From Blasia pusilla (Eukaryota): a stretch of 64,000 bases of DNA. The stretch is taken from the NCBI GenBank assembly GCA_050084515.1, contig CM114271.1, forward strand, positions 19,096,001 through 19,160,000, in the 5' to 3' direction. The translations under genes were made by a program, and so were the position numbers. Positions 6,701-64,000 of this stretch are shown piece by piece (the stretch's first letter is position 1; each line of letters begins with the position of its first letter). The notes below the pieces were generated by a model. That model was not told the origin of the DNA. It saw nothing but the letters and a program-made list of their open reading frames with translations, and did not search any database.

Positions 6701-7046
6701 CCTCCCTTCTAGCCCTTGGTTCTGGCGAACTTAAGCCCAAACATGGTCCTCGATATCCTGATGCAAGTACTTAGGGTGACTTTGATCGAAGGCAGGGTCA
6801 ACATCTCCTTTTAGAATGGCCTTCCGGACGCGGAAGGTGTCGACACTCTTTAGCTTTGCATGAAGATGAAGCGCCTATCTGAGTCTTGGTTTTCCCTCCA
6901 GTCTGGGTTTTGGACCTCGTGGTGACCGCGAGAGCTTCGTTTAGGAGTTTCGATGGCCACTCCGAGGAGTCTTCAGTTGCCGTCCCATCGGCCTCCTCTT
7001 CCCTAATGGTAACTTGTATTGCTTTAGGGGATACCAACTCCTCTAC

Positions 7047-12785: not shown

Positions 12786-13110
12786 AGGTTGCACGTAGAC
12801 AAAGTCCGTGTCCGTGGACTTATGTCCGTCTTGAGGATGGACATGTCCGTGCGGGCCTGGATGCGGGCTCCATGAGCCCATGGCCCGTGCACATCGAGCA
12901 TTCCATCCTTTCTTAGCCAGTGCAAATCACGCCCAATGCCCATTTTTAGGTCAGGCCCACGTCACGGCTAAGTTCGGCCCGCGTCGCACCCTCTGATTCA
13001 TCACGTCAAGCCGTAGCCCACATGCGGGCCCAAAAGTCTACGCGCCCTGCCCCCCAATGCAGGCCCATGAGCCCGCGTCTGAGCTTGCATGCGAGCCCCC
13101 CGCCCCCCAA
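12786..13110 (+). repeat. GC-rich dispersed repeat, probably a transposon end; similar to 53371-53720
   Basis: GTTGCACGTRGAnAAnnTCCRTG..GTGGACTTATGTCYGTC..GGAYGGACATGT..GGGCCTGG occurs at both 12786 and 53371 in the same orientation. Confidence 0.65.
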
Positions 13111-13664
13111 TAATGAAGTCTTAGAGTCACCTCATAGATGGTGGCTCTAAGAAAAAAATAATCTTGGGCATATAGCACCAGAGTTGATAGCAGGGCCTCT
13201 GAATCTCCCTTTTAGCAAGGCCACTAAAATCTATGCTCTAGGAATGATTGTGAAGAATTTTAACTATCTGACATACAACCTCTTTGTCGAGAATGCCCAA
13301 GCGAACGTGAGATTTACTTATTTGGAAAGGATTCCAAAGTGGGCATCAGCTCCAAATCCCTCTAATCACAAAAGCTTAGAGTATCTTATTGCATATATCT
13401 GAGCAAATGCCAAAGTATTAGGTGTAGACGATGTAGATTTGGGATTAAGGCCATCAACAATGATAGTGTGATTGTAAAATCTATTTGAGGATACGATATT
13501 TTTCATGAGAGATGGAAGACTTGGTTCAAAAAGATGAATATGTTAGTATAATTTTTTGTAAATGATGAAGCTTGATTGATCTATGGATGTATCGTGTGTC
13601 ATCGTATGACTATTACTGGAATCATTTCTAAATCACCTTTTTTTATATTTTGGTGAAAGACAAG

Positions 13665-15830: not shown

Positions 15831-17019
15831 AGCTAGGGGAAGAGGAGGAAGAGTTGGTGAGACATCAACACCGGTGTTACATATATCTGATGATGAATGA
15901 GATTAGATAGAATGAGTTCATATTTATATCTTTGTAATGTACATAAGTATTAGGTTCCTCTCAATCCGGATGTTCTGTGGGGTACTACTCACTTTTTGTA
16001 AATACATTTTCAAAATATTTCACTGAGGAGACTTGTGAATGTGAGCCAGTCACGAATGTTGTCTATAAAGTGACTTCATGAAATGAATGAAAGTTTTCTC
16101 TTGGTTATAAGTCTTTGGATAAGATGGAAGGAACGATAATTGAAAGGTTTGTTTGATATTAATTTTAATATTTTATTTATTGATATTTTTTTTTGCATAT
16201 ATTCAAACATCTTGAACTTATACTTGATATAAGGAGTTCCCATTAATTATTTTATAAAATAATTAATATCCAAGAAGAGTATTTTGATTTTTTTCCCAAT
16301 GGGCTATATCATACTATTAAGGACGTTAGCCATGGCTAACGTGCTCCTAACGCCACGCGGGAAGCCTATTTATTTCTCAATCATTTTTGAATAATTTCCC
16401 TATACTAAGGTAAGTTTTGAATAGAAAAGAGGAATTTATATTAATTTAATTAAAAAAATATTTATTATATAATGAATAAATATTATTTCCCAAATATTTT
16501 TGCAGCTCTTCATTTTGATCATTTAAAAAAAATATAATTTAAACTAATATTTCGGAATTTAGGAAAAAAACCTATACTTGTAATTTCAAGTTAATTTTGG
16601 AAGGGAAATTAATCTTCTAGAATTTTTTTCATTTTTTTTATCTCTCCTCATTTGAAAATTTAAAATTATTTTTGTAGGTTTATGCAAACAAAATTTAAAG
16701 TTTAGTTTTGAGGGGAGATTAAATTTTCTTTTGGGAAAAATGAAAAGGATAATAGGATAGTAATGGGAGAAGAATTATTCTTCAAAATAAAAGAAGACAT
16801 ATCATTTCTTTAATATTTTTAACTTTCAAGTTAGATTGGGGGAAATTTAATCCCTCTTTTGGGAAATTAATTGATCAAAATAAGAGATTTTCTTATATTT
16901 ATTGAAATATGGGGATTGGAAAAAGGAATTTTTTTTTCAAAATTAATAAATAAAAATATATGTTTGAATCAAATTTTAAAGGAAAAAAGTGTTTGAATTG
17001 TGTTTAGTGAGCAATATTG

Positions 17020-27983: not shown

Positions 27984-28869
27984 TGTTGTATAGAAAAATC
28001 ATCCATTTTGTAAACTCCTCTATCATTAAGTGTTAGAGAGAGTTTTATTAGTATTAATTAAATGAGCTTAGGAAAATGAATATTCCATGTTTTAACCTCT
28101 TTAAGATGGCTCATTTGTGCGGGCTGAACTTAGGAAAGAAGTAATAAATAAAAGATGGGATTATAAAAGTAAAGTAGTGGGGTTAGTGCTTTAATGAAAG
28201 AAAAGCAAAAGTAGTCTTGGTTGGTGGTTAGAGTAATTGTAGTAGTTTAGAAGATATGAAGTGAGTAAAAGAGGATATTTTGGAAAAGATAAGAACTAAT
28301 CTCTTTGTGCCAAAATGTGATTGGCTAAGCCTTGAGAAGAAGTCATGTGGCACAAGATAAGATTAGACATATTTTCTACTCTTGTGGATCCCTTGTGAGT
28401 ATATAAAGAGAAGGGACCTTCACGCCAATCCATGGATTCCATGGAATCCTTATATAGCAATCCATGGACGTCAATAGGCCTGTTGTAACTCTCCAGCTCA
28501 CGGGACCACTCTAGAGTTGCTCAAAGGTAGAATGCCCTCAAGGCCTCTCCTCTTCCTTTATATACTTAGAGATAGGTACAATGAAGAAAAATTAGCTCTA
28601 CCTATCCTTATGCCATATGTCCTACTGTCATAGCATGAGAGGATCTCCTTTGGAGTGTAATGTCCCAACCTCATCTTTCTCAACCTCATCCTTATTTTCC
28701 TTTTTACCAACCTATGGCCCAACTCTTATCTTTATGTCATGTATCTTGTCGTTTCTCTTTTTGGTTGATTCTTTCCCACTTATGCGCTTCATGTCATAGA
28801 TTCTAACTTAACTATGACTAACAAAAGATGGTTACAAACCTCCCCCCATTTAAGACACAACGTCCTCGT

Positions 28870-30630
28870 TGTGAGAACTTTCAAACTCTTGCACTATTAG
28901 TGGTGCGTTCACCAAGTTGGCTGAGGGTTCCCATCTGGCCTCAAAATAGTGGATATCCTTTCCATTAGACCAAATATTCAACTCGTTGGTGATAAGCTCT
29001 CAAGTGCGTTTCTTCAAGATACATTCCACTTCAAATTCTTCATGATCTCCAACTATTTGAGATAGTGGTGGAGTGACAATATTGTCCTTAAATCTCTTAG
29101 GGCGTGGAATAAACGTTCGAAGAAGAGAGACATGAAACACATGATGGATTTTCATATGTATTGGTAGATCTAGCTTATACGCCACAACGCCCACTTTTTG
29201 TAGGATAATGAAAGGCCCAATATAGCAAGGATTAAGCTTACGAACTCCTACTAATGATAAATTGGTTGTTGTTAACCAAACCTTGTCCCCTTTAAAAAAC
29301 TTGACATCTCGACAATGAGCATCTACATGTTGTTTTTGTTGATTTTGGGCAATAGCCAACTTCTCCTTAGCAAGTTGAACCCCTTTTTGAATCTGGTCCA
29401 CAAACTCATTAACTGCAACTACCTTTGTAGGTTCCCTCAGACTTTTCCCTATTCGAGTGAGACTAGAAGGAATTGAGGGATGCTCGTCATGCATTAAAAA
29501 GAACGTTGTGATCTTAGTGGAAGAGTTCATAGAATTATTTTATGAGAACTCTACTAAGGGTGTCAATGAGTCCCATCCTTGTTGATCCTCCAATGTTAAG
29601 GCGCGTGGCATATCCTCAATGGTATGGTTGGCCCTTTTAGTTTGTCCATCAGTTTGAGGGTGATAAACCGTAGACATGGCTAGTTTAGTTTGGAGCAATC
29701 CGAATAAAGCCTTCCAAAATAAACTCGTGAAATGGATTTCGCTATCAATGATAAGCACTTTATGAAGACCATGATGGACAAAGACTGTCTCGATGTAGAT
29801 CCTAGCCAATTCTGGTGCAGTCACAATCTTCTTGGTTGGATGAAGGTGTATCATCTTGCTTAGTCTATCCATAAAGACCACAATAGAATCATATCCCGTG
29901 ATCGTACATGGTAGCTCACAAACAAGATCCATAATGACTTGTTCCCAACGTTTTTGAGGTATTGGGATCGGCTGCAACAATCCTGCTGGTTTTGTGTTAC
30001 TAGCCTTGATTTGTTGACAAATCCTACAACTCCTTACATATACGTCAACATCTTCTCTCATTTTGGGCCAATAGTATGCCCATTGTAATCCCTCTAAGGC
30101 TTTTTCAGCTCCCATATGACCCGCAATGACTGTGTCGTGAGCTTCAGACAATACTTCAGTGTGTAATTGTGGATCTTGTGGGATCCATATTTTACCTTTA
30201 TGGAAAACCAATCCTTGAGCCTTGTATACTCTATTGGCATGAATAGCAACTGCAATTTCTTCATCCTCCTTTGTGGCTTTTGGATAACTTTTTCCACCAA
30301 CTAGAGTGAACCTCCACTTCAGATATGTTATTCATCTGTCAAGACGTTTGCCAATTGCTTATTTTCTTCCACTTAGAAAATTTTCATCATGAATTGTTGT
30401 CGCCATTCTGCCCATCGAATTTGACGTTTGGAGAGCTCCTTTTTGGGACTCTAAGTAGACCAAGGGCTTGTGATCAATCTCCACCACAAACTCCTTATCG
30501 CTCAAGTAATGTTTCCAATGCTTGGTTGCCAACACAATAGCAAGTTCTTATCGCTCAATTGTATGGTAGTTTTGCGTAATGATTGAAAAGAAATCTCTTG
30601 TGATGTGCCCCAATTCCATTTTTGTCCTTT
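28870..30630 (-). pseudogene. RNase H C-terminus, integrase and chromodomain of the chromovirus
   Basis: HDTVIAGHMG..SCRICQ zinc finger, MDLV..YHPQTDGQT core, IGPF motif, and EEFEVECIL..EYLV.WKGY chromodomain. Confidence 0.9.
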
Positions 30631-30632
30631 CT

Positions 30633-30926
30633 TGTGATACCCACAATTTTGTACTCTTGAAGAATATATCTTTTTATTCAACGAAGACTCTTGTATATTA
30701 TGATTTTGATTATGATTATTTATTATTATGAAGAAGAATGAGTGAATCACGAAGCTCTTGGGACAAGGCAGAGAGATGGAAGATCAAGGATTTGCCTTAG
30801 AGGAGAGGAAAACACAATAACAAAGCTTAACGAAGCTCAACGAAGATGTACGAAGCTCTGTCTTTGAAGTGCTTCGCTACATAACGAAGCATCACGAAGA
30901 AAAGAAGAAAGAAGTACTTCGCTCTT
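30633..30926 (+). repeat. Diverged terminal fragment of the inverted-repeat family of 204-10408
   Basis: TGTGATACCCACAATTTTGTACT...GAGTGAATCACGAAGCTC..GGACAAGGCAGAGAGAT..GAAGTACTTCGCTCTT aligns with 204-526. Confidence 0.88.
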
Positions 30927-30929
30927 CCT

Positions 30930-32530
30930 TCAACTCGTCTCGTACCTCTGAATATTTTTTCAAACCACAAACATCTATTATTAAACCTAGGAAACATACA
31001 TCTTGATGTTTGATGGCGGTTTTTCCTATTATATATAGGAGTAGGGTTTTAAGACGTGATCTGATTCTATCTTTGTTAAGCTTCCATTGTCGGGTCTTCA
31101 TAATCTTTTTTCTCCAATTTACCTCTGGATTATATTGTTCCATCCAAGGCATTCCCAAGATAATATCATAACGTGCTAACCTAATGACCTTCATCTCCAA
31201 CTCTTCTAGATACTTTCCTATCCTCAACTCTACCCTTCGAGGAAGCTTCTCAATCTTTTCTGTTTGCCCGTCTGGTAATTTTACCTCTTCTTTTTGATCC
31301 CTCTCTAAAGCTAAGCCCAATTTCATGGTTATGGCTCTTGAAAGGAAGTTTTCTATTGCCCCAGGATCAATCAACACTCTAACTTGGGATCCTTTTACTT
31401 CCCCATCTATAACAATGAGACGTGTTTCTCCTCTCTTCAAACCATTTACCTCCATATGTTTGTGTCGACCCTCGACTTTCCTCCTTTTGTTAGAACCAGT
31501 ATATCCACGAGGCGCGATTATTGGTGGTTGGCGTTTCCCCGAGGTCCGCCTTCTTCGTCATCTTCCTGCATATGTTCTCCTTCAAGATGATTAAGGGGGC
31601 GACGATATGGCCTGTTTCCAAGCCTACAAAGATAAAAATTCATGGCTATATGACCATATCTACCACACTCAAAACATTGGCGTGTATCTCTTCAGACTTT
31701 GAATTCTCTCTCTCCTCTAGGAACCCCAACCCTATCGGTTTGAGGAGCAATCCCTTGTATGTTGGGGTCCGATCTCTCTCCATTGGCACCCTTCCATTAT
31801 ACCTTCCCGGCGCATAACTATCTCGTGCTCGAAGATTACCCAACTCCATGGGTGTGGGTCCGTAGTGGTTGTTCATGGAAGCAACCACCTCTCTTCCTCC
31901 TCCTTCGTACACATTTGCCATACGTTGGACACATACGATTGCTTCATTGATATCTTTTGGGTTGACTCGAATCACCTCTTTACATACCTTCCTCTTCAAA
32001 CCTCTCTTAAATAGATAGAGAGCTTCTGGCCCACTCATGTTGCGGATTTGTATCTGCAAGTCACGAAACTCTTTGATATAGTCCTCCATAGTGCCTTTTT
32101 GCTCCAATCACTATAATTTCATTCTAGCAGTGAGGATTGGATCCACAACTTGGAAATTTTGCAACTGCCCTTGCTTCAGTCCGCTCCATGTAATTTGTTG
32201 AATTGTTTCAATCAAGGATCTCTCGCGTCCTTGGTACCATTTCAATGCTTGATCGATTAACCAAGATCTTACAAACATTCCTGAAATATGATTATCAATG
32301 TTGAAAAGGGATAAATGGATTTCCATCCGAGTCATCCAACCCTCTAATCAAATGCAACTCTCAACTTCTTTTGTACGGTTCTACTTTGGATGCCTTTGTC
32401 ATTTTCAATATCAATGATGCTTGAGCATTTATCTCCATCTCTCTTTGTGTTGCTTGGGCCTCCAATGCTCGTGCCCTTAAGGTTTCGTCACTCTCCCCAG
32501 AAGTCACGACACTCGTGGTTTCTGTCTCCA
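30930..32530 (-). pseudogene. gag and protease of the chromovirus
   Basis: EQKGTMEDYIKEF..FKRGL and GPTPMELG (gag); VLIDPGAIENF..YDIILGMPW (protease). Confidence 0.88.
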
Positions 32531-40856: not shown

Positions 40857-42987
40857 ATGTTGATATCGATGTCCTCGATTAATTACCTGGCAGTGGTCCA
40901 GGTAGTAGCCATCTGTGTATTGTTTCTCGGCGATTATGCGAGTGTCGTGGATGGCCAGCAAGCATGGCAGGTCACAAGCTGGACTCCTTCTCATGTGACG
41001 TTTTACGGCGAAATGAGTGGTGCATCAACGATGGGTACGTGATCACAACATTTCCGCCGCTATCCCTTCTATAAAGTTTGTATTGGAATCTGTTTTAGCC
41101 TCGATAAAAGCTGTGAAAACACTCTGTGCATCTCTACAGCTGCTGGCTCATCCGATCAAGCAGACACGTCTGGTAGTGCTCAGAATGGAGCGTGCTCCAA
41201 ATGCGCATGTCCGTTGCATGCCGTTGCTTCGTTCATCTAGAAAATTTAAAGAAAGTGGAGGTAGTAGCTATACTGAGATCGAAGCTAGCATATGGCCAAC
41301 ACTGAGCTGCGTAGGCTATGGATACTTAAGTCGATATCTACGACTAAGTTATATCCATGTGACTCAAGAATGTGGCTCAAGATTACAAGTGTACTCATTC
41401 GAACTATCTGCATCTATTGCAGATGCTAGAAAAAGAGAACTCCTGAATTCTTCTGTAGGTATACACAGAGGTAGATATCAGTCCCATCGAATTCAATTTG
41501 GATAACGGTCGCAGTCGCTGAACTCTTTATGTGGGTATGTACTTGCAGGTGGTGCGTGTGGGTATGGAAACCTTTGGTGGCGTGGGTATGGGCTGAACAC
41601 AGCTGCCTTGAGTCAAACACTGTTTAACAACGGGCTCACTTGCGGAGCATGCTTTCAGATCAAGTGCGATGTCGCTTCAGGAACATACAGCACCAGGTGG
41701 TGCTGGGCTAACTCCCCAAGCATCACAATTACTGCCACAAATCTTTGTCCTCCGAATTGGGCCAGACCGACCAATGATGGAGGATGGTGTAATCCACCCA
41801 GAACCCACTTCGACCTGCCCGTGGTTATGTTCCAGCGTCTTGCAGACACTGTCGCTGGAATTATTCCCGTCCAGTATCGCAGGTACAGCTCTTTAAATTT
41901 CATATCTTCTTCCGGAGCTCATCTTCATGAATAGTTTGTGGTCCCTTCGAATTCCTTTAACTCCAGTCTAAATTATGCTAGCGCCGATCGTGATTGCTCA
42001 CTCCATTATCCTAGCCCATTCATTCAATTTGCGAGTGCGTGTAAGAAAAACCATATTCCTCCACTTCAACAGATCCTGGATTCTAGTTCTGATTCGACTT
42101 TGATCTTGCTCCAAAACGTGGGCTACCTCGAAAGCTCCGAACAGTCGTCTACAGACAATCAAGAAAACCAGCCTGCTGCGCTTGTTGGTGTGTCCAGTAG
42201 GGCATGCATCCATGCTTAGCCTAGAAAGAGGACAGAAGGTGAATGCTCATAACATGTCCGCAATTTAGCTTTCCTTTCTGGGTAGTGCTGGGAAAATGCA
42301 TCTACATTACCAATTCAAATGGAGACTCCGATCCAGGCTATGAGCGTGAGAATTTAGGAAATTTGGTCGATGCTCTCCGCATGATATGAAGTGACACACA
42401 CGGTGGGAGGCCATCAACAGCCAAGAGTTCATTCACAATTCTAATCAAGTCGATAAATGTATACATCTCCCTTGAACTAATCATACACATAGCCACGGCC
42501 AACACGACATACGGGATATATATCGGTCGGGACGTCCAGTGCGATTTTATTTTGTACTACAATAGCTCACATATGTTCTCTCCAGAATCCTTCCTCGCCA
42601 CCGATATCGACCCATTGATCTGCTGAGTGCCGAGCTATTTTATGTGTAACTTGTTCTCTGACTCCCTTTCTTGGCCGCAGAGTGCCATGCGTGAAGACGG
42701 GAGGCATCCGATTTTTTCTGAGCGGAAATCCGTGGTTCAATCTCGTCCTGGTCTACAACGTCGCCGGAGGCGGTGATGTGCAGGCGATGCGAATGAAAGG
42801 GGATCAAACCAATTGGTACAGCATGACGCAGAACTGGGGCCAATACTGGCAATGCTCCTACCGATTGACCGGTCAGGTCCTTTCCTTCATGGTGACTTTG
42901 GGCAACGGACAAGTTCTGGTGGCTAACAACGTCAGTTCGGCTGTCTGGTACACCGGACAGACTTACGAAGCGTCGTCAAATTTCTGA
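40857..42987 (+). CDS. EXPA: Alpha-expansin, 3 exons (40857-41034, 41549-41882, 42681-42987), 272 aa
   Basis: Signal peptide, [70 protein letters not shown] and M.QNWGQ.W. GT-AG introns at the conserved EXPA positions (phase 1 and 2) give an open 819-nt CDS. Alternative ATG at 40869. Confidence 0.97.
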
Positions 42988-50900: not shown

Positions 50901-53370
50901 TTCGGATCTCGGAGCTCCCATAAGTGACTCCACACAAAAGTTGTCTCCAATGTAAGCGGGCAGTGTAGACGGATCTGCTCGGCAGCTACGTACCTCGAAT
51001 GGGAATGAACGGTTAGTTTCCACTTCCAATGGATTCATCTCGGGAGATTGTAAAATCTTCCTCTTTGCGGTGTATCCTCGTCCTACGAGAGGCGGAAGGA
51101 AGAACCATAGCTTTCCGGTTCAGGTTGGACTTGTTCGAAGCTCCAAAACTAGAGTCAATTGCTAATCACTCACGCCGACGATTTAGTACGCATGAGCTTT
51201 CGGACTAGACGAGTTTATCGAACGACTTTGCAACTCTGTAGGGTGTCCTCTTCGAAGGGAGTCAATGCTCGATTAAACTAATGGTTTTCTCATAATGGAG
51301 TGACTATCACTTCCCTTGTAGGGATCACACAAGGAAAACGGCTCCTACCGATTAAGTAGCCACCGAATGCGAGGAACCAGGTTCGAAATTTTTGAATCAA
51401 TCGTGCATCTAACAAAACTTATGGTAACCGAGTGCATGTGGTCTATCTATATTAAGCAACTTAATTATTTATTCTACTCGAGTATCGAACCGGAGAGGCA
51501 TCGAAGAGAGCATAGAATAGGATATCCGCCATATAATTTGGATTAGAGTTGAAACTTTCTCATAGCATTCCATGGAATTTCACATTACTCACCTTGCACT
51601 TTTCTTGTCATTATTTTTCAGATGATTGAAATCATGTTTCTCGCGCACACGAACAAACAACAAAGGCTAGCGGGGCCTCATACCTTCGTGGTTTCCCAAG
51701 GCCACTTGGAGCACGAGAGGAGGTTTAGGTTGTTCCGTATCATGGATGGATTGTGGTTATCTTTTTCCGTTTAGGAACATTATGTTGCACTCATCTATAT
51801 TGTTAGGGAAGAGTGCCTTCTTGATGTGTAAACACCTCTTTGCTTGACACGTGGCAAGTGGGCAGCAAGAAAATATTTCACATGCTACGTGCAACAAGAA
51901 AAAAATTTGAATTTATGTGCACCATCATTAATCTCTTCCCTTCACGAACTATACACTAACTCTTCAAACCTTTTTTCATTTCCCATGCATCACACGGGCA
52001 CCTTAGTAACACTAAACTACTTATTGATGCAGTAAGTAAGACCAGCTATATTTCTAGAGAATGGGGGCGAAGCACATTCTTCAAATATTTCATGTCCAGA
52101 TTCCATGAGGATAAACTGTAATTTTTGTTATTAAGTAATAATTTATATTTCTATTGGAGAGTAATTTCTTTTTAGCAAACACTTCAAGCACATGACAACG
52201 GGAATTAAGAAAATATTTGTTATAAGAGGAGAGAAAAAATTGAATTTATATGTAACATGATTAGTCCTAATGGAGACTAGTTATGGTCCCAAATAAATCA
52301 AATTTTTTAAATGGTAGTTTGTAGTTGGGCCGCAACCCCTTTAATAAGAGTGTGCTCTCACACATCCAACTTTAAGATGGATTCTATAAATTTATTTATT
52401 TTTTAGCACTTTATAAGTATTTTTAGAAACAAGTGTCTTATTGAGAGGGGTGGAAAAAAGGGCCACACACTAGTTTGCTTTACTATCTATTAGCCTTCAA
52501 TCGCCGCAGCCTTTCATATGTCATAATCTAAATTTACTACATTAGTTTAGCATGTGACATAGATTTTGTTAAAATCTTTCTAAGTTTTTAATTCTAGTTG
52601 CGATGGATTTTTTAGACTTTATGTTTATTCCGCCTTCAAATTTCTACCCTTAAATTGTTTCAACCTTTAGAGGCAACATTCTATTTTTTCCCTATTGCTA
52701 GTAGAGCTAATGGGACTCCAGGTCGCCAATGGCAAAAGTCGTGGGACCAATTACGTAAAACTCTGAGAAAAAATCCTCTTTGGCTTAAGTAAGTGTCACT
52801 ATGCACATATCAATTCAAGATGGATTGAAACCCCCATATAACAAAAATGAAACCATGACTTTCTTGATGATGATGGGCCTTTGAGGTTGATATTGCTTTA
52901 GATATGTCTTGAACTACTTGTTGCTATATGATCAATTGGTGCAATGTCGATCTAATGGCCTCCATAATCCCAACAATAGCATTCATAGTGCACACTCAAA
53001 ATTTGTCAAAAATATCCCTCCATAGACTAGATATATTTTGGATGCTAACATACTGTCTAAACCCTTCTATGGGATTTCTATCACTTAATAGTCAAACGAC
53101 GTAGGGCTAAGGACTTAACCATATCTTTAAGACCAATCAGAAGTCGCACAAGCAAAGTGATTTTCATTCAAGATGCTATTAGATCAGAATTGAGAAATCT
53201 CAAAATGTGGAATTTCCTATCTATGCACCCAACTCTAGATAAAGCCTCATAAGATCTCTTCATGCCATTTTTGTATGTATACATATCGTTCTCACCAAAT
53301 ATAAACACAAGATCAATACCATAATCATTTATGATATGTGAACACAAGGATGATCATGTAATAAAATCAA

Positions 53371-53720
53371 AGTTGCACGTGGAAAATTTCCATGCTTGTG
53401 GACTTATGTCTGTCCCGGGGACGGACATGTTCTTATGGGCCTGGGTGCCTGCTCTATGGGCTTGGGTACCGAGGCATGCACCTCCGCCTACACCACCCAA
53501 ACATTACGCCATTACTTAGGTAGCCCGCACCTCGTCCCAACAACCTGACCCCCATTTTTGTCACCCGATTTCTAGCCCGTGCCGTAGACGAATTGACCCG
53601 CATCGTGTCCGTATGCTAGACCATCCCCACTTTTTGTGTCGTGTCCACGTTGAGCCTCCAAGAGGCCCAAAAAGGCCCAGACCTAGCCCATATGGAATCC
53701 TAGATCGCCATGTGTCACCT
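53371..53720 (+). repeat. Second copy of the GC-rich dispersed repeat seen at 12786
   Basis: Aligns with 12786-12900 over the first ~100 bp. Confidence 0.6.
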
Positions 53721-54917
53721 TTAGACTCATCCTCCACGCTCACACTCGGCCAGCATCCCACAAATCCCACAAGTATACATGGCAGCGTTTCATTGGTAGA
53801 GGCTAAGTGCGAACTAACTTCCCCCCTTTCTACATCCTAAAATGTGTTGGATTCTCAACATCCACTTCTCTGAGCACCATTAATCTGATCGGCCCCTTTG
53901 TATGAGGAGAAGCCTAGATTGATGGTTCGGACTTAGACGTCAAAGGAGTCATAGTAATATGACGCAGGTGGTTTCAGGAGTAGCATTACTAGGATTATCG
54001 AACTCCCAAATCTCGATCGACGTCTCGGAATACCGAATGCGCATCTGAGAACTCGACTGTTCGGAACCTTCGTGCATCTGCAAGAATAGAGCGAGAAGCG
54101 AAGGGGCTCATGGCTCACGAAGAGAAAAGCCGAGGTCCAACACCTGGGCTCCGATAGGCGTGGGGGTCCGTATGCGCAGCTCCCGGAAAAAAATTTCTAT
54201 TAATAGAAATGAATAAAAGTAGGTAAAAACCCTAGTTTCCTGAGTAGTGAAATAGTCGGGAGCCGCAGCGGTTGCGCATTCTCGTATGTCGAGTTATCTC
54301 CATGTTCAGGTTCCATCAAAGCTCTTTTGTGAGCGCACGAACGGACTAGGCCACTTTGTATCTCTAAGTTTTGTAAAGATTTCTGTGATTTTGTCTCTTT
54401 CTGTTTTCTCACAAAATGGGTTGTAAACAAAAACCTATAAGCAAAGAGTCCACAAGTGGAGCCCAAAATGCTCATAAGTACGTGGGTGATTAGGGGTTAA
54501 TTAACTCATATTTTCTCCATTTCCTTCATGCTTTTCCTCCTTTACTTTGAGAGGAGGGATAGTTTTGGATTAGGCCCCAAATTTCGTTGTTGCCTTGAGA
54601 GCTAAGGGATTTCAAGGTTGTTAGGAATTTTGGGGAAATCTACTGCATGCATTTGGGGATAATAAGATAAATTTGGTTTTGAACAACTTGGATATTTGTG
54701 CTCCTTGTTATATTTTAAACAAAATCTAATTTATTCCCCATTAGGTGAGAGTCGGTGTCGGGAGAGAGAAGAAAAGGGCAGGTTTGGGTCTGGTAGCCGC
54801 CGGGGGCTATCAAGTAAAGACGGCTAGGTTAGGTTGTGAAGGTTAGATTTAGGGGCGCGGACAGAGGACGGGCGCGGCGAAGTAGACGGGCGCGGAGGCG
54901 GACGGAGTCGGGGCCGT

Positions 54918-54960
54918 CCCTTACCTTCCCCTCCGCACTTTGGGGAGGGGAAGGTAAGGG
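54918..54960. repeat. Perfect 17-bp pyrimidine/purine hairpin
   Basis: CCCTTACCTTCCCCTCC-9 nt-GGAGGGGAAGGTAAGGG. Confidence 0.9.
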
Positions 54961-55803
54961 TACACGCCCGCTCAACCACGTAGCTCTCCTAACCATGTAA
55001 GTAGTTCCACCCTGGTAGCCGGATCACCACATCCTGAACCCTACCACGTTGTCGTATAGTAAAATCAACCAGTGTGTAAACTCCTTCGTCATTAAGTGTT
55101 AGATAGAGTTTCATTAGTATTAAGTAAATTGGCTTAGAAAAAGGAGATTCTTATGTTTAAACCTCTTTATGGTGCCTCTTTTATGCGGGCCCAACTTTAG
55201 GAAAAGGAGGTAATAAATAAAAGATGACTTTATAAAAATAAAGTAGTTGTTTTAATGAAAAGGAAAAGTAGTCTTGGTTGGTGGCTAGGTTAGTTGGGGT
55301 AATTTGGAAAATATCAAGTGGTAAAAGAGGATATTTTGGAAGAGATAAGAGGAAATCTACTTGTGTCAAAATGTGATTGGCTAAGCCTTGAGAGGAAGCC
55401 ATGTGGCACAAGATAAGATAAGCTCTATTTCGTACTCTTGTGGATCCCTTGTGAGTATATAAAGAGGAGGGACCTTCAAGGGTTCATCACCTTCTATTCC
55501 ACATCTTGAGTCTCTCGTGTCTCTCTTGAGTGTATGGCTTTGGGATTGCTTGCTCTTCCAATGAGAGTGGATCACCCCTCTTGGGAGAGTAACTTGATCA
55601 TGGTCTATTCTTTGAGAGGTTTCTAGAGTGTGGTGTGTGTGTGTGTGGGGGGATGAGAGGTTTGTCACCGTAGAGGAGTTTAGTCATACTAAAATAGCGG
55701 ACGTTTTGGCTTGTTACTTTCCCAATGAGAGTGGATTACCCCTCTTGGGAGAATAACTCCGCCAAAACCCATTCTTGAGGAGAGTAGAGAATGTCTGTCA
55801 AGC

Positions 55804-56229
55804 ATGGATAGGGGTGGAGCACGAGCTGTGCCCGACTTTCCTTTCCTCAATCCTTACCATGTCAAGGTACTCTTTGTAGATAGGCACTGGTTCACTCGCT
55901 ATTTAGTTTATGACTTTGGGGAGGCGTTCATGAACCAGGTCATGAAATCTCCAACTCCGGTGATTCTTCCTATCGTCACATATGGAAGGACATGGGATTG
56001 TACTTTGTATGTCCTTATATAGCGATCCATGGATGTCAATAGGCCTGGTCAAGTAGGGTTTAACACTAGTTGTGCTATCTTCCTCGTGTACAACCGTAAA
56101 ATAGTTTATAGGGATTTTATAGTTAGGAATTTCGGGGTCCGATGTTACGAAGAAGTGATCGCGTCGGCACTTCCATTTGTGATACCTGTCGTGAGAGAAT
56201 GGAGAGTGTACATCATAATTTTGTATTGA
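55804..56229 (+). CDS. Two tandem small paralogous ORFs inside the LTR (72 aa at 55804-56022; 66 aa at 56029-56229)
   Basis: Both are open. Protein-level conservation with the chromovirus leader copies and with the solo LTR copy (28463-28483 plus 33672-33858). Confidence 0.65.
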
Positions 56230-56382
56230 AAAAGGAGAACTTATTGGAGAGTTCATCTTGCATCGACCGCAGCTAGAAGGCCCGCCCTTGCTCGAAGAAA
56301 GATTCTCGACACGACAAATGGTGCTTCCATTGAGAGCTCTTTGAGGCGGTAGATTGTGTTTGCAAGTTGGAGTCTTAACAAG

Positions 56383-58667
56383 ATGACTACTTTTGGGAGT
56401 ACTTCATCAATGGGAACTGAGGGAGCTGAGGATCTTCTCCGAACTTTGACAACACTGCTAAGCCAACAAGGAGGAGTTCACATCGGAGAGCAAAGATCAA
56501 CAAGGGCTCTCCAAGCGATTGTTAAGAAGTTGGGGAGATTTGATGGCAGGAACATCACCAAGTATGTTCGAGAGTACGTCTGTGAGATGGAGGTAAACCG
56601 TGTACCCGAAGGTGATATGGTGTCAAGTTTTGAGTTAGCTGTAATACCAAAGATCCGTAGTGAAGTAAAGAAGTTGAGAGTAGAAAATCCAACCTCATGG
56701 GAGGAGTACGATTAGTTGCTGAAAGGAGAATTCTTCGATGATGATGTGGATCGGGTGAATAAGAGGAGTTTTCAAGAATGGATAGAGCAACATCCAAGAA
56801 AGGGAATGACTCCAAATGAGTTGTTGCGTGAGTTTGAGAAGCGGTTTTTTCAGCTTTCTCCTTCTGAAAGGGCAACTCTAGACTTGAGGAAAACCGAGTT
56901 ATTCCTTGAGGCGGCAGATGAGAATTTGGAGGACAAGCTTTTCATAATGTTGGCGGACAAGAATGAAGAAGGAGGTATGAGCACTAATTGGAAGAAAGTG
57001 GAAGGAGCTGTTGCTATCCTCACAAAGTAAAGTCGAAGTAGAGGTAGAACCACAGTATTCAAGTCGGAGGTACCAATTTCAAATCCATTGCCTAAGCCCA
57101 TGCCAGCAAAGCTTGAAGATTCTACCATTGATGAGTTGGTGAAAGGTTTGAGAGGGTTGAGAGTAGAAATGGCTCAGCTTAAACTTGATAGGAATCCTAG
57201 TGTTGGTGCTCCTTCAACAAGTAAGAACTTTGTGAGAAGATGTATATGGTGTGATAGTGTTGAGCATCAACGTCGAGAATGTGAGGAATTTTCAGAAGCT
57301 CTTAGAAATGTAATAGTAAACTTCAAAGATGGGAAGATTCATTCGACGTAGACTGGTATGCCGTTGAATACCAACTTTGGTAGAGGAGGTATGAAAGGAT
57401 TAGTGAGAAGTCAAGTAGGAGTTGCCACTACGACATTAGATTCGACACCTTTGCAAAGAAAATTGAAGCGCCTATTGTCTCTGTAGCTAAAAGTGAATCA
57501 TTAGAATTTCTTCGAGAAGTTATGTACGAGGGGCAGAGACTATCCGTCATCTGACTGGATGGGATGATCCAGTGGAAGCTGGGTGTGTTAAAGCATACCT
57601 AGCACAAGAGAAACATGTGAGTTGGCAAGATGCTGGTGTGGAGGAGAAGAGGAGACGCGACAATGATGGTGTTGATGCTGAGGAAGCCGCAAGAAGAGCG
57701 AGGATCTTAAGAAGAAAAGGACAACCGGAGGCGCAGCCATCAAGAGAAGAAGGACCTTCCACATTTGAATCTGTGAGGGATTCTCATGTCAAAGAAGCGA
57801 GGACAAAGGAGAAGCAATTGAGGTCTCCTCGAAGACCAAGGGTAAGACTCCTACATACAAGTCGATCGATATCGAGACAAGCACGAATTTAAAGGAGATT
57901 CTTGAGGAGAGGATTTTGGATGCAAAAATAGAGTTTTCTTTGAGGGAAGTCTTGGGCATAGCCAAACGTGACTTTCATGAGTTGATCATAGATGTGATCA
58001 AAAGGAAGAGGCAGATGACTGCAGATATGGTGATGGTGAGAGCTTTGATACCGACATCACAGAAGAAGAAGATGAAGAGCTTTGCCAAGTGTTTGGAAAA
58101 AAAACCTTGACTTACGGGGAAAAGAGGCGAGAGTAGGAGAAGCCTTGTGAACAAGGTGAAAAAGGCATAATGGTGGACACTATTCTCGATCATATTGGCG
58201 CGTGCAACGACAGAGGCTAGAGTTCGACTTGGCTCTCTTCAAGAGTCGAGCCGGCTCGTTGATCATGGTTCGGAGATCAACATCATGTCGCGAAGTGTAT
58301 ACGACAAAGGGATGTGGCCAATTGATACAGGGCATGGATGGGTACTACGAGCGGCTAACAACCAAAAAGGTGAACTCTTTGGTGCTTGTCCATCCGTCAA
58401 AACTTGTATCGGAGATGTGTTGATTGAGCAAAATTTCTTTGTTCGAATGGAGTCGCTTATCCTGTGATTCTTGGGCAACCTTACATCACAAAGATTTAGA
58501 ATGGAGACCAAAGTCATGGATGATGGGTCTCATTATGCCCGTATTAGAAGTCGAGGATGGAACAAGATCAGTTCAATTTCTTCATTTGTGCAGTAGGTCA
58601 TGAAAGGAATAGAGAGAAGTTGAGAGATGGTCCTATGAAGGTAGAGAAAGAGTTTTCGGATTTTTAG
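56383..58667 (+). pseudogene. gag-protease (decayed)
   Basis: LGRFDGRNITKYVREY, zinc knuckle CIWCDSVEHQRREC, protease LVDHGSEINIM. Ends at TAG 58665-58667. Confidence 0.85.
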
Positions 58668-58701
58668 TTAGCACTCCTATAGAGCGGGAATATGGGGGTG
58701 C
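58658..58701 (+). promoter_or_regulatory. Putative -1 ribosomal frameshift signal (gag-pro/pol)
   Basis: G GAT TTT directly before the stop, a 6-nt spacer, then a 10-bp stem GCACTCCTAT/ATGGGGGTGC. Confidence 0.6.
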
Positions 58702-61298
58702 AGAGAAAAGAAAGAGTCTTCCGCTAGTAGAGGGGGAAGAATCATATATGTTTAGGTGTGGGTTTTCTCAATTTTTTCTTCGTGGTCTAGTAGATTCCAA
58801 ATGATGAAAGAAATGAATGAAAAGAAAAGACGTTTTATAAAAAAAAAAAAGGAGGGTTTGTTAAAATGTGAGGGTGTTCTATTTGATGAAGAGTTCATTA
58901 GTGGGATGTATGAAGAAGAGGGTTTTGGAGATAGTCTTGAAGAGGTGTTTACCCAGATGAACACCGATTTGCTGGATATAAGTGTGATTGCAATTCACTC
59001 GCGTGAGTTGCATGAAGAGATATCAAGGTTCATGGAAGGAGAAAATGAATATGAATCTATGGAGAAGGAAGCGGATGGGCACGGGTTTGAGTCTAATTTA
59101 ACATCCCATGGAGGCACAAGTGCACACAAAATACAAGACAAAGGCCCGGAAGGTGAAACCAATGGCTACTCAACTACCTTGAGGGTTGTGGGAGACAAGT
59201 AGAACGTGCATCAATGGAGCCAAGTCTGCGGGATGTCAAGAAGATAGGACACAAGTTCACGAAGAGACGCTAGATCGCTGCAAATCGGAGGGGTGAGTTT
59301 CTCACGAGAAATTGAAAGAAAATGCTTTTGGGAGATGTTAAGGAGACATGGTAAGGCTTTCTCTTTTACTACACAAGAAATTGGTTGTGTAGACACGAGT
59401 ATGGTGGCACCGATGGTAGTTTTCACAGTTCCACATGTGCCTTGGGATTTGAAACCCATACCAGTACCACGAGCTATGATTCCCAAGCTGATTGAGTTAT
59501 TGAAGGAGAAGAAACAGATGGGTATCTTAGAGCCATCTATGGGGCCTTACTCGAGTCGATGGTTCACTGTGCCGAAGAAATCAGGAGCTCTCCGGTTCAT
59601 TCAAGATATGCAACCGGCAAATAAGGTAACCATTCAAAATATGGGAGCAGGGCCTAGAATAGATGAAGTCGCAGAAGCTTTTGCAGCCCGTGCTATCTAT
59701 TCTATAGGAGATTTGCACTCAGGATATGATCAATTCCAATTAGCTACAGAGAGTAGAGATATTACCACTATGCGCACTCCACTTGGGCTTGTAAGAATGT
59801 GCACATTACCTCAAGGAGCAACAAATTCTGTCGCTCACATGCAGAGTGCAATGAATAAGATCTTGAGAGAGTTCATTCCTGAGAAAACCATTCCTTTTGT
59901 AGATGATATCCCTAGAAAGGGGTGTGCAATAGAAGATAGGATTGAGAGGGTTGTGAAAGATGGGTGTAGAAAGTTTGTGTCTGATCATATTCGAGATATG
60001 GATATGATCCTAACAAGACTAGAAGAGGTCAATCTTACTCTTTCTGGAGAAAAGTGTAGCTTTGGGGTTCCTCAGATTGTGGTAGTGGGTCATCTTTGTG
60101 GAGAGTTTGGCCGAAAACCAAATCCACCAAAAGTTGATGTTATTGGGAGGATACGAGAATGCGAAAACGTCACCGAAGTGAGAAGGTTTTAGGAGCTTGT
60201 GTGTTCTATCGGTGTGGATTCCTCATTTTGGCCACATATCGATCCTTTGTATGAGTTGTTGAGAAAGAAGAAGAAGTTCACTTGGGAGCGAAACAAAGAG
60301 CAAAGAATGATGCGATTGAAAGGAGGCATTGAAGTCGCCACCGGTTCTACGACAAATGAGCTACGAACGCGACGACCTATTATCATCACAGTGGACACTA
60401 GCCCTATTGCTATCGGATGGGCGGTTAGGTAGGATGACGCGGAAGGAAGAAGATTTGCGACAAGGTTTGGAGCTCGTGACACTTACTTTAACGACAGAGG
60501 AGGTACCCTAGGTAAAGAGGAGCTTTGGGGAGTTGTAATCGCAATGAAAGCTGAAAAGGAGTATCTTATGGGAGCCTATGTATTTCTTGAGGTTGATTGT
60601 CTACCTTTGTTAGGTATGATTTAATTGTACGACTCGGATATAGCCATGCTACGTTGGATAGCCTACATTAGGTCCTTGAATCCACAATTGAAGCATATAG
60701 TGGGAAAGAGAACTCGATGAGTGACATGTTGTCTAGAGCTAGATTTAGTCAAGAAGAAGATATGGAGGCAACTAAGATAGATGAGGATGATGCACATGTG
60801 TGGCAAGTGTTATCTCAAGAACGAGGTGGCATAGAGGATGTTCTAGCCTTCAAAGAGGATTTGTATGAGGGCAGGTTAAAAGAAATTGGGCGCTATTTAA
60901 GCACTCTGCAAAGAGATGGAGGGTGGACAGAAAAGTTCTTCAAGGAGATTCGACACAAGGCGTACGGCTATCTACTACAAGATGGATATCTTTGGAAAAG
61001 GCCAAAGAGGAAAGATGGAATGCCCTTGAGGGTGATGGATGACAATGGGACAAAAATGGAAGTGCTCAAAGAATTCCACAATTCTTTATGGGCAGGTCAC
61101 AGAGGTACTTGGGCAACTTTCACCAAGATAAAAGAGAGGTATTGGTGGAAGGCCTATATAAGGATGTTGAGAGATATGTTGGGTCGTGTGTTGAATGTCA
61201 GTTTCAATCAAAAATCAGAGTGAGAGATGGACTTAAACCCACGTATCCTTTGTCTATTCATCATCAATGGGTTATAGATCTAGTTGCTATGCCACTAG
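58668..61298 (+). pseudogene. pol: RT, RNase H and integrase N-terminus
   Basis: IGDLHSGYDQF, LPQGATNSVAHMQ and FVDDI (RT); TVDTSPIAIGW (RNase H); HNSLWAGHRG..CVECQ and QWVIDLV (integrase, truncated). Confidence 0.92.
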
Positions 61299-64000
61299 GT
61301 CGGCCTATCCATCCAATTGCCATACATATCCTTCTTTGCCGGCATGACTATGGCAGATGCATACTCCCCATGTGATAACTCCACAAGTCCTGACTCTTGC
61401 TCTGAATCAAGGCTCGCTCCATATCAAAATACCTGTAGGATCGAAGAAAGATTGGCGTATCACTAGCCAACTCAATCCGTATCGCGGGACCCTTCAGCAT
61501 ACCCAAGTCTCTCATACTGAAGGCAAAACAACTCACATGCCCTCTCAAAAACCTATGAACTTGCCGTCGCTCTCCTCCTATCAACTTGAGACCTTATCAC
61601 AGGCTCCCAAGTCTCCATCGTGACCTCACTCGGAGAGGACGCAACCTCCGGCTTTGGTTGCTATGTAGCAACCCTAGCCACCTCCGCAACAACCACTCCA
61701 CTCTGACCTCCTACACCATGCTCCACATCCAAAAAATGAACATGTGCTACTCTGGCCGCCTTCGCACTCTCTCCTCGAACGACATCCCAAGAAGTCCATG
61801 GGTGCCTATCTCTCCTCGTCTTGCCCCCAACCAATGCCTGTACAGACCCTGTAGGCAATGGTCTAACTCATGGACGTGACGGCATGGGTGACACTTGCAT
61901 CCGTCTCTGCTCAGCCATACCTAGGCTGACTATCCATGTGAGACAGTTGAGGTCCATTACCTACCCCAACATCTGTCTCCGGGATGCCTCAAACATCCCT
62001 GGCACCGCCCTAGTACCCGTAGCAAACCCCATGGTGCGGTCGCGCTCATTTGCTGTAGGCTCCTCCAATGCTCCGGTCACCTCATCCCAAATCATGCTTG
62101 GCCCTCCCTGACAAAAGGCATGGGATGTTGGGAAGCTCACCATCGTAGGTAAGGCTTCCCTCAACTCCCCCACCCTATTGGCCATCGCCAACGGTGGTCT
62201 ATCATCCCGTGTCACCACCTGAGATTGATGCCTTGAGCCCAAAATAGCATCCACTGTGAGATGTGGTGCTCTTTGACTCCATCGTATGCTCGACTTAGTT
62301 ACTCTGATGGTATTAGGTTTGTCCACCATAGTCGTGGACGATGAGCACGTGATCCAACTCTCGCTGCATCTAACAACACAGCAAGTCCCAACCAAGACCT
62401 CACCTGATGCACACTCGTCATCACACGTGCACGAGTGTCTCCCAACAACGGCACGTTCTCCAAAATGTACGTTGGAGAACATGTATGACTCTCCTGCAAG
62501 TGTCGTACTACTCGTAGCATCTCCCAAAACATCCCTGACCTCCGATCCTGCAATCCAAGTCCTCGGCCAGTTGATGAATGACCCTAACATGGCCATCCAG
62601 CAATCACCAAATGAATGGTGCCAACTCTATCCAAATCTTGCGCCCCCATCAAAGAAATGTTGGCGGGTAGTGTATGCTCATATCTCCGTACTGTCAGATG
62701 CCGACAACAACTCAAGATACCTCTGGACCAATCTTGCCACGTGACGTAATGATACTCACCGCGCGGTCTCATCTCTCTCCACATAAAGGTACTGATGCAC
62801 CTATATGCCGCCTGCAATACTGCAGCCAATCCGGTGCTAATTCCTCCAAAGAGATCTAACACCCTAATACCCTCCTCTTGGCACTGCCACACAACATGTG
62901 TGATATCCAGTGGGGTCAGCATCTCCACTCCAAGAGCTCGATCACCACGTGACTCTCGCTGCTCTGGGATAAAAGCATGACTCCACGCCTGCCTCACGAG
63001 GTCGTCGACACTCCTCTGTAGCTCTCGAGTCGTACCCCACGATGGTGAAGAGGTCTCGCCAACATGGGAAGAGACACCCGCCAAGGCATGTCTCTCTATG
63101 GGACTATCCGCTACTGGGACATGCTCCGCATGTGCATTCCCCTCCAACAACTCTCCTGGCCAGCTAACACTACGTGTAAAAGCTGCCAACGTGGTCATAG
63201 ACTTGCCTCGTGATCGACCACCTCGTCCCGCAAACTGCACGGGTAACCGACTAATCTGTCCTTTACCTGACCGCCACCCTGGCCGATAAGCAACGGTCTC
63301 CTCCTAAGTCGAGGATGAATCCTAGGGGATATAACACTGTACTCCCCACCAACACATCGTACGACTCAGCTGGTGTCGTAATCGCACGTGTGCGCACCAT
63401 AGCACTATCCGTCGCATGCTCTGGCTAGACTCGAATAACTATCTCCTGTCGAGTCATATACTGCGTGGGTGAAACGCCCCCAATCAAGGTCTGTATCTAA
63501 AAGGGACAAGGCTCAATGTCGGCCTTCCGTAACCCCAACGTTAAACAGGCCGCCTTCCCTAACATCAAGGGTTGCACTCCCGAATCAAGTAGGATGCGCA
63601 GTGGGTGGTATACTGTCCCCGTGGGACTAACCAAGCGAAATACTCTAGCTCGGTTATCCAGTCACACTACTCCAAGTGTCACCACTGCTCGCTCTATGGC
63701 CGGTCGAGCTGGCATATCTACCAACTCGCCGTCATGCCATGACTCTGTGGGGAAAATGGCTCGAGTGCAAGTCCACCACCTCCTCAACTACCTCTCGAAC
63801 AAGAAGCGCTTATCTCTCCACGCCACACAACCTGGCGGGGCTAGAACACCTCAGCTGGTCCAACTCCCAACGTCGCCAACTGTATGGCGAAAAAATAGTG
63901 GAGTGTGACTCACTCTCGTGGCCACCTCCAACACTATGGTCGACACTGACTCCACTTGAGCCGGCATAGGAGTTGTCACTCCAACTCCTCGTGACGTCGA
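61299..64000 (-). mobile_element. Fragment of a Ty3/gypsy element with the order protease, C5 DNA methyltransferase, RT N-terminus; runs off the window end
   Basis: Protease ILLDSGVQPLMLGK (~63555-63600). Methyltransferase at 61925-62875. RT start FAFSMRDLG..IRIEL..TPIF..YR..GLVELSHGEYASAIVMPAKKD (61310-61560). Confidence 0.88.
61925..62875 (-). pseudogene. Retrotransposon-encoded C5 cytosine DNA methyltransferase (DNMT3-like), disrupted
   Basis: Motif I IRVLDLFGGISTG, IV IAGWPC*G, V DRRSGMFWE, VI YILENV, VIII LDAARVGSRAHRPRLWWTN, IX EPTANERDRTMGF and X RRQMLG*VMDLN, in canonical order. Confidence 0.9.

Follow-up and report, generated by a model that had tools for sequence, protein, structure and literature searches.

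Hosts fight transposons mainly by methylating cytosines, so why would a retrotransposon bring its own cytosine methyltransferase? A locus in the land plant Blasia pusilla raises this paradox eight years after a first report that rested on dinoflagellates and one charophyte alga (PMC5890265). We analyzed a stretch of 64,000 nucleotides (assembly GCA_050084515.1, contig CM114271.1, positions 19,096,001 to 19,160,000; hereafter the window), near the end of which an initial annotation made from the letters alone had placed a C5 cytosine methyltransferase inside a gypsy polyprotein. We found that positions 61304-64000 on the minus strand are very likely a dead fragment of a Ty3/gypsy long terminal repeat (LTR) retrotransposon, from a family whose Gag-Pol polyprotein carries a DNMT3-like C5 methyltransferase between the protease and the reverse transcriptase (RT), and that its identity as a gypsy-borne C5 methyltransferase element is highly probable. 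The surprise lies in the reach and apparent age of the family and not in the window locus, which is a fossil copy.

All three minus-strand frames of positions 61299-64000 were translated, and the DNA was also inspected directly. The protease, the methyltransferase, and the start of the RT all lie on the minus strand, spread over three reading frames (61304-64000; Table 1), and the methyltransferase domain carries motifs I, IV, VI, VIII, IX, and X in canonical order with the catalytic cysteine present. When Marchantia polyproteins were aligned to the window by tblastn, they matched it at 49-74% identity from the protease through the linker and DNMT to the RT start, and the stretch was collinear with uninterrupted relatives and had no intron-like gaps. 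The translations and alignments bear out what the initial annotation had claimed, namely an intronless C5 methyltransferase, with these motifs in order, between an LLDSG protease and the RT start on a single strand. The collinearity of the stretch with polyproteins that lack introns led us to reject an intron-containing host DNMT3 gene as its source. The DNA_methylase profile (PF00145), which the annotation had proposed as a check, matched only one of three methyltransferase pieces when the open reading frame (ORF) pieces were left unjoined, and there below its cut-off (19.3 bits, E 8.6e-4); once an in-frame TAG was read as X, the read-through scored 33.3 bits against a cut-off of 22 (E 4.4e-8) over the N-terminal two thirds. 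By these scores, the methyltransferase match in the window is far beyond chance. The linker between the protease and the methyltransferase, for which a Pfam scan of 62971..63300 gave no family match, is also present in the moss-type proteins P0003, P0004, and P0008, and the RT of the window ends ahead of its catalytic core.

Relatives of this fragment are complete enough to reveal the architecture of the family. When the read-through served as query in a word-indexed search, 84 of 1285 candidates proved to be relatives of similar length and 23 of 1650 proved to be longer relatives, at 41-59% identity over most of the query, and all of the named ones were bryophytes (Marchantia polymorpha, M. 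paleacea, Riccia sorocarpa, Calypogeia fissa, and three Sphagnum species). In the Marchantia proteins, a gag bearing CCHC knuckles is followed by the protease and linkers seen in the window, by the methyltransferase, and finally by RT-RNase H. Such gene models may have stops removed by splicing, and we therefore turned to two proteins called directly from ORFs, P0260 (2327 amino acids) and P0325 (2138 amino acids), in each of which Pfam identified, in this order and within one uninterrupted chain, zf-CCHC, aspartic protease, DNA_methylase, RVT_1, RNase H, and integrase. Both proteins therefore show the Ty3/gypsy pol order of protease, RT, RNase H, and integrase with a CCHC gag upstream, of which the window holds the protease and the RT start. 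The same order of gag, protease (PR), DNMT, RT, RNase H (RH), and integrase (INT) recurs in gene models from Marchantia, Calypogeia, Sphagnum, and Closterium. The initial annotation had asked whether other copies carry the domain and whether intact elements have it in the same frame as pol: up to 72 contigs from the same organism and the 84 plus 23 database proteins carry it, and P0260 and P0325, found when intact copies were sought, hold it in frame.

Metagenome loci related to the moss-type proteins add the outer boundaries of the element. Direct repeats of 307-342 bp, 86-94% alike and 8.7-10.6 kb apart, surround the DNMT in four loci (L003, L029, L049, and L066), while no flanking repeat pair was found in the other 15 of the 19 loci examined; where present, the pairs suggest the old insertion of an ordinary LTR element about 9 kb long. 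An ESM Atlas look-up of the moss-type domain P0002 returned generic DNA_methylase clusters only, and the homology searches and cluster look-ups yielded chlorophyte and Closterium names and none from Klebsormidium.

To which class of C5 methyltransferase does the domain belong? A profile of eight relatives, compared with all sequences of solved structures, ranked DNMT3A first (1.5e-19), ahead of DNMT3C/3B (about 1e-17), plant DRM (2.6e-12 to 3e-9), M.HhaI (3e-7), and DNMT2 (2.5e-4), and no DNMT1-type chain was among the 54 hits at E ≤ 0.01 in this set. M.HhaI thus lies twelve orders of magnitude below DNMT3A, and a contaminating bacterial restriction-modification methylase was rejected. An AlphaFold model of P0002, made from a 49-sequence alignment, had a mean predicted local distance difference test score (pLDDT) of 91.8, and all of its Foldseek matches listed, through rank 49, were DNMT3A, 3B, or 3C, at template modeling (TM) scores of about 0.8-0.85 when normalized to the isolated catalytic-domain chains and at 19-23% identity. 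The domain is about 80 residues longer than the catalytic domain of DNMT3A (TM 0.65 query-normalized, 0.84 target-normalized). Cellular DNMT3A/3B/3C and plant DNMT3/DRM are thus the best profile and fold matches, and the motifs keep the ordinary order found in DNMT3; DRM, in which the order is rearranged, was rejected on this ground. Cellular DNMT3 enzymes have companion reader domains, described as PWWP/ADD in animals and a domain of unknown function in plants (PMC12344493). On the other hand, Pfam found no PWWP, ADD, or other reader domain in the full-length relatives P0260 and P0325 or in the window pieces, and the element domain, which lacks the plant DNMT3 companions as well, sits inside a polyprotein at an identity of only 19-23% to its cellular counterparts. 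Together, the profile and fold rankings indicate that the domain is DNMT3-like.

The residues expected of a working enzyme are well kept across the family. Over 49 domains (31-78% identity to the first), the catalytic cysteine and the glutamate of ENV never vary, nor do 3 other columns, and conservation reaches at least 90% in 28 further columns, including the motif VIII arginines and motif IX. When the domain core of the window copy was compared with 51 moss-type metagenome loci, the median Nei-Gojobori ratio of nonsynonymous to synonymous substitution rates (dN/dS) was 0.15, a value that is approximate because dS, at about 2, is saturated. The comparison indicates purifying selection on the methyltransferase domain at a dN/dS of about 0.15, and the live relatives retain an intact-looking catalytic core of DNMT3 type.

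Sequencing runs from the same organism show that the window copy is one of many. Two DNA runs (contigs, from different studies) and two RNA runs (raw reads, 6-12% of each run sampled, the whole of the RNA evidence), all under a single species label, were aligned to positions 60300-64000 at 90% likeness or more. Summed contig depth in the DNA run X3 was about 1800-5200 on the DNMT element compared with 130-300 on the neighboring element, which is unrelated and lacks a methyltransferase; as many as 72 distinct contigs coincide at one place in the DNMT stretch, and contigs of both DNA studies cover the protease-DNMT and DNMT-RT linker stretches. This organism therefore holds many sequence variants of the element, although depth is not a copy number. 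RNA depth was 0.1-12.6 on the DNMT element, where first mates map solely to the plus strand, and 83-195 on the neighbor (56353-61301), where they map to the minus strand; since the mate strands are opposite in a stranded library, both element families yield sense transcripts. The DNMT-element family is thus highly repeated and weakly transcribed from its sense strand in these runs. Transcripts of the neighbor family continue beyond 61301 with other letters. Among the difference rows listed, to which the comparison of stops was limited (a further 180 rows lie beyond them), three of the nine stops of the window copy were seen (63663, 63427, and 62803), and at these nearly all other copies carry another letter; the RNA reads do so too at 63663 and 63427 and have no coverage at 62803. 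At three of the six frame breaks (about 63304, 62274, and 61594), some other copies or transcripts differ in length by 1-2 bases, from a minority of the X1 DNA contigs up to most RNA reads at 61594.

Several observations, besides the saturation of dS, weigh against reading these elements as a live family with a selected DNMT3-like enzyme. The window copy cannot make protein, and its gag, RT core, integrase, and LTR are all missing from the window. Most known copies are dead, since the DNMT match lies in one ORF in only 4 of the 33 long loci among the 80 metagenome loci retrieved. The proteins of Marchantia and Closterium come from gene models, in which splicing may skip over stops, and P0161, P0259, and P0260, whose differences at 1-2 of about 2180 residues fit recent copies, are possibly one locus taken from three assemblies. 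There are few RNA reads, most of them derive from other copies (2-13 differences per read), and they possibly reflect read-through transcription. Among the mostly dead moss-type loci themselves, the median dN/dS is 0.55 (1158 pairs), a value expected because much of their divergence is post-insertion decay. The trees described below contained no named host DNMT3, DRM, CMT, or MET1, so that "DNMT3-like" denotes a profile and fold ranking. Finally, the proline of the motif IV Pro-Cys is replaced by glutamate in 62 of 157 family domains (GWECQ, e.g., residue 1061 of P0161), with the catalytic cysteine kept, while the bryophyte clade that includes the window keeps Pro-Cys.

The window copy is dead, truncated at both ends, and has no function of its own. 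Alignment to the Marchantia polyproteins revealed nine in-frame stops and six frame breaks between 63772 and 61304. The ORF at 62584-63303, which the initial annotation had treated as one true frame, is not one, since compensating breaks at about 62812 and 62695 hide a stretch in another frame that matches the relatives. On the 5' side, the element continues past the window end at 64000, so that gag and the 5' LTR are outside view; on the 3' side, it ends at 61303, just short of the RT core, where it meets the neighboring element head to head. That neighbor (RVT_1, E 1.1e-15; Integrase_H2C2, E 3e-9) itself ends at the junction in mid-integrase. Unmatched ends pile up at 61301 in RNA (96 and 122 reads) and at 61303 in DNA (41 and 9 contigs). 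Contigs of other copies extend past 61303 (41 in X1, 9 in X3) and translate as the next Marchantia RT residues, so the truncation is private to the window locus. Among the records listed, no read bridges 61301/61303, which is uninformative either way because 27433 pieces lie outside them, and the junction may be a genuine rearrangement or an assembly join.

Table 1. Features of the methyltransferase-bearing element and its junction, in window positions
Feature	Position	Strand	Basis or remark
Aspartic protease region of pol	63308..63772	-	tblastn: Marchantia P0087 residues 595-731 (59% identity), P0094 residues 89-244
Protease motif LLDSG	63592-63578	-	Translation
Protease-methyltransferase linker (AYRPGW...LLEGN...)	62971..63300	-	Aligns to Marchantia P0087 residues 735-850
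DNMT3-like C5 methyltransferase domain	61931..62970	-	PF00145, motifs, relatives' profile, tree
Motif I, LDLFGGISTG	62859-62830	-	Translation
Motif IV, GWPC, then TAG	62598-62584	-	Codon after the catalytic Cys is a stop
Motif VI, ENV	62460-62452	-	Translation
Motif VIII, RAHRPRLWWTN	62349-62317	-	Translation
Motif IX, ERDRTMGF	62047-62024	-	Translation
Motif X, LG-TAG-VMD	61969-61952	-	Translation
Methyltransferase-RT linker (VSLGMAEQRR...HPWTSWD)	61594..61930	-	Aligns to Marchantia P0087 residues 1190-1260
RT, N-terminal ~95 residues	61304..61593	-	Aligns to P0094 residues 701-802, 64-74% identity
Protease-region stops	63664-62, 63499-97, 63427-25	-	
Frame break between protease region and linker	~63305	-	
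Methyltransferase stops	62803-01, 62758-56, 62586-84, 62301-299, 61963-61	-	
Methyltransferase frame breaks	~62812, ~62695, ~62276	-	
Methyltransferase-RT linker stop	61870-68	-	
Methyltransferase-RT linker frame break	Between 61715 and 61593	-	
RT-start frame break	~61396	-	
Head-to-head junction of two truncated retrotransposons	61301..61303		At most 1-2 bases between; no LTR on either side
Neighboring unrelated Ty3/gypsy element without methyltransferase	56353..61301	+	Gag, protease, RT, RNase H, integrase start

How did this copy decay? The initial annotation had read the stops at PC(Q) and LG(Q) as TAG codons left by CAG>TAG deamination of methylated CHG sites, and both are indeed TAG where all aligned relatives have glutamine. 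In the moss-type loci, the glutamine codon of motif IV is CAG in 42 of 66 and CAA in 14 of 66, with independent TAG stops in 2 loci, and that of motif X is CAA in 35 of 46 and CAG in 5 of 46, with independent TAG stops in 5 loci. At two further stops (63427-63425 and 62803-62801), the window has T where nearly all other copies in the same organism have C. Over the 3.7 kb compared, the window has A/T where others have G/C more often than the reverse (80:29 in X3, 73:53 in X1, 74:44 in X21, and 47:33 in X22), and the copy has decayed mainly by C-to-T change. Such change is expected of methylated DNA, yet it is the commonest mutation anyway, and CAG or CAA to TAG or TAA is among the few single-transition routes to a stop. 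Depletion of CpG and CWG, sought as a mark of deamination, gave observed/expected ratios of 0.72 and 0.86 in the element compared with 0.73 and 0.68 in the window. The conserved glutamines and the C-to-T excess fit the proposed deamination but are not diagnostic of CHG sites, since the CWG ratio is above the window average and CAG>TAG is a common route to a stop. Far lower ratios occur in three other blocks of the window (12001-16000, 28001-32000, and 52001-56000; CWG 0.38-0.41, CpG 0.53-0.63), which may be old, heavily deaminated repeats.

The rest of the window includes an expansin gene (41506-42984, plus strand), whose presence the initial annotation had reported and which matches to DPBB_1 (E 4.2e-21) and Expansin_C (E 2.6e-24) confirm; the two domains lie on two ORFs about 690 bp apart, so at least one intron is present. 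The CpG observed/expected ratio is about 1 across 40-52 kb, unlike the repeat-rich rest of the window. Two more decayed gypsy-type elements without a methyltransferase lie on the minus strand, one with gag, CCHC, RT, RNase H, and integrase (3749-8189) and the other with protease, integrase, and SH3_Tf2-1 (29003-31557).

Beyond the bryophytes, the family falls into two architectures. An exhaustive profile search of 1.84 billion representatives returned 12071 hits at E ≤ 1e-3, 2383 at ≤ 1e-10, and 473 clusters at ≤ 1e-30; the best 150 matches all scored at least 244 bits, and many were polyproteins of 1000-3456 amino acids. When 23 long representatives were scanned with Pfam, 21 had the DNMT after RNase H, among which it preceded the integrase in 20 (the other ends first) and a C-terminal PHD finger was present in 18; the remaining two comprised one with the order of the window and one without RT. 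A BLAST-based census of 271 proteins recovered the same two classes. Some of the RT-RNaseH-DNMT-integrase-PHD polyproteins (P0110-P0317) add a Tudor domain (P0117), a G-patch (P0165), or a chromodomain (P0275 and P0285), and a 14.2-kb metagenome contig bears an uninterrupted ORF of 2182 amino acids with RT-RH-DNMT-INT-PHD (L069:4860-11405, plus strand) that is possibly an intact element.

Trees of the methyltransferase domain follow the same division. The midpoint of a FastTree of 158 domains separates 125 rows (96 RH-DNMT-INT, 29 unclassified, and no PR-DNMT) from 33 (22 PR-DNMT, 10 unclassified, and the window), with 0 of 96 and 0 of 22 classified rows misplaced. In a quick IQ-TREE of 54 rows, from which 3 near-duplicates were left out and for which 24 of the 96 type B (RH-DNMT-INT) rows were drawn at random, a single branch splits the architectures (Shimodaira-Hasegawa-like approximate likelihood ratio test, 94), and the window groups with Marchantia, Calypogeia, and moss-type sequences in a 15-member clade (support 99). 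A tree of RT-RNase H (5 type A rows, 45 of 85 type B rows at random, and 2 window outgroup rows) was uninformative, with a type A branch support of 45 and outgroup branches of 4.8 and 1.6. The named PR-DNMT-RT members are streptophytes (liverworts, Sphagnum, and Closterium) and the named RT-RH-DNMT-INT members are chlorophytes (Monoraphidium, Haematococcus, Chlamydomonas eustigma, and Cymbomonas); since most members of both sides are unnamed, this apparent split is a lead and not a result.

The kind of element was already known. The initial annotation had mentioned DNMT-carrying retrotransposons from dinoflagellates and charophyte algae, and the published text agrees (PMC5890265). The closest published kind is KnitGypsy-Dnmt3 of Klebsormidium nitens, described as an intronless DNMT3-related domain in a Gypsy Pol under purifying selection (de Mendoza et al. 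2018, Nat Commun 9:1341, PMC5890265). As far as its description goes, it shares with the window type an intronless, non-rearranged DNMT3-related domain in a Gypsy Pol, a streptophyte host, key catalytic residues that are kept, low rates of amino acid change (Ka/Ks < 0.2 there, dN/dS about 0.15 here), and copies that are silent and methylated, or decayed (PMC5890265). The two differ in their hosts, since the window belongs to a land plant with an expansin gene and its named relatives are liverworts, Sphagnum, and Closterium, and in their repeats, which are described as DIRS-like for KnitGypsy-Dnmt3 but are plain flanking LTR pairs in the moss-type relatives (PMC5890265). The survey table of the 2018 report includes Physcomitrella and Selaginella and not Marchantia (PMC5890265), and a 2026 preprint lists the Klebsormidium element under "streptophytes (Gypsy-DNMT3)" (bioRxiv 10.64898/2026.05.21.726589).

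Other methyltransferase-bearing elements are more distant. The DNMT of the chlorophyte RT-RNaseH-DNMT-integrase-PHD elements forms a sister clade to that of the window type at 31-39% identity, also lies in a gypsy Pol, and shares signatures around motifs IV, VIII, IX, and X, but is placed between RNase H and the integrase instead of between protease and RT, and a C-terminal PHD finger is usual. SymbioDIRS-Dnmt3 and SymbioLINE-Dnmt of Symbiodinium are likewise retrotransposon-borne C5 methyltransferases, the former described as a DNMT3-related enzyme in Pol that methylates CG de novo in yeast; they differ in belonging to the tyrosine-recombinase DIRS and long interspersed nuclear element (LINE) classes of a dinoflagellate host, for which independent acquisitions are inferred in the report (PMC5890265). 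The EpiLTRs of Cymbomonas and Euglena are also LTR retrotransposons with a cytosine methyltransferase, but theirs is described as a sister of DNMT4 that is attached to pol on its 3' side and accompanied by an adenine methyltransferase and a chromodomain, and the authors set EpiLTRs apart from Gypsy-DNMT3 (bioRxiv 10.64898/2026.05.21.726589). Within the searchable full-text literature, with subscription journals and supplementary PDFs outside its scope, we found no description of Gypsy-DNMT elements in liverworts, mosses, other land plants, or Zygnematophyceae, nor of the chlorophyte RH-DNMT-INT-PHD gypsy type. What appears to be new is that a known kind, Gypsy-DNMT3, reaches land plants, a genetic model among them, and that it is apparently old.

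What might the enzyme do for the element? As a tentative proposal to which we give somewhat less than an even chance, it would methylate the element's own new copies, as the initial annotation had also suggested. The methyltransferase would be translated within Pol and so accompany RT and integrase into the particle or the pre-integration complex, where it may stay fused or be freed by the protease. It would then add 5-methylcytosine de novo to the element's own new double-stranded complementary DNA (cDNA) or to the fresh insertion, and new copies would enter chromatin already bearing the host's mark. The benefit could be masking of the cDNA as "self," damping of the element's own expression, or limiting of harm to the host. 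A similar argument has been made for the Pol-embedded DIRS enzyme, with masking as self, protection from editing, and self-restraint among the benefits named in the text (PMC5890265). A broader version, which we regard as doubtful, is that an old green-lineage gypsy clade has carried a DNMT3-like enzyme since before the streptophyte/chlorophyte split, in two fixed architectures and hundreds of 50%-identity clusters, and that it is still transcribed and possibly mobile in land plants, where it would methylate its own nascent cDNA and write its own epigenetic state rather than await the host's RNA-directed machinery.

It is also conceivable, though unlikely, that the domain acts in trans on the DNA of the host or of rival transposons, either reshaping the host methylome or slowing retrotransposition to the benefit of the host and so of the element. 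Both options have been raised in print for retrotransposon DNMTs (PMC5890265), and the PHD finger after the integrase in 18 of 21 chlorophyte-type RH-DNMT representatives points to an engagement with chromatin. Fusion into Pol argues for action on the element's own copies instead, since the enzyme would be made in step with Gag-Pol and probably packaged, and Pfam found no nuclear targeting or reader domain in the streptophyte type. Less probable again is that the domain is kept for a role other than DNA methylation, such as DNA binding or chromatin tethering in the manner of a chromodomain, or RNA methylation, which has been suggested for the LINE-borne DNMT (PMC5890265). The replacement of the motif IV proline by glutamate in 62 of 157 domains favors such a role, but conservation across 49 domains is complete or at least 90% at the catalytic cysteine, the glutamate of ENV, the arginines of motif VIII, and motif IX, the bryophyte clade retains Pro-Cys, and the fold and profile match the DNA-acting DNMT3 and not DNMT2 (E 2.5e-4). 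That a host DNMT3 pseudogene, a nested insertion in one gypsy copy, or an assembly artifact produced a one-off chimera has next to no probability: although the window copy is badly decayed and ends at an unexplained junction that no listed read bridges, the same order and linkers are found in Marchantia, Calypogeia, Sphagnum, and Closterium as well as in metagenome contigs, both linkers are covered by many contigs that two independent DNA studies of this organism produced, and the window domain falls in a clade of element-borne domains with a support of 99, so that other copies and relatives refute the chimera for the domain itself, the junction alone excepted.

The land-plant copies, their Closterium relatives, the green-algal sister clade, and the 473 clusters together suggest that the association of a DNMT with gypsy elements is old, widespread, and kept by selection, and not one alga's curiosity. 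Self-methylation of new copies, and the alternatives to it, could be addressed in the tractable organisms to which these findings point, by measuring the activity of the enzyme, its target context, and its effect on new insertions. If the family reaches as far as it appears to, the many copies carried by Marchantia polymorpha would make the role of retrotransposon-borne DNMTs testable in a genetic model.

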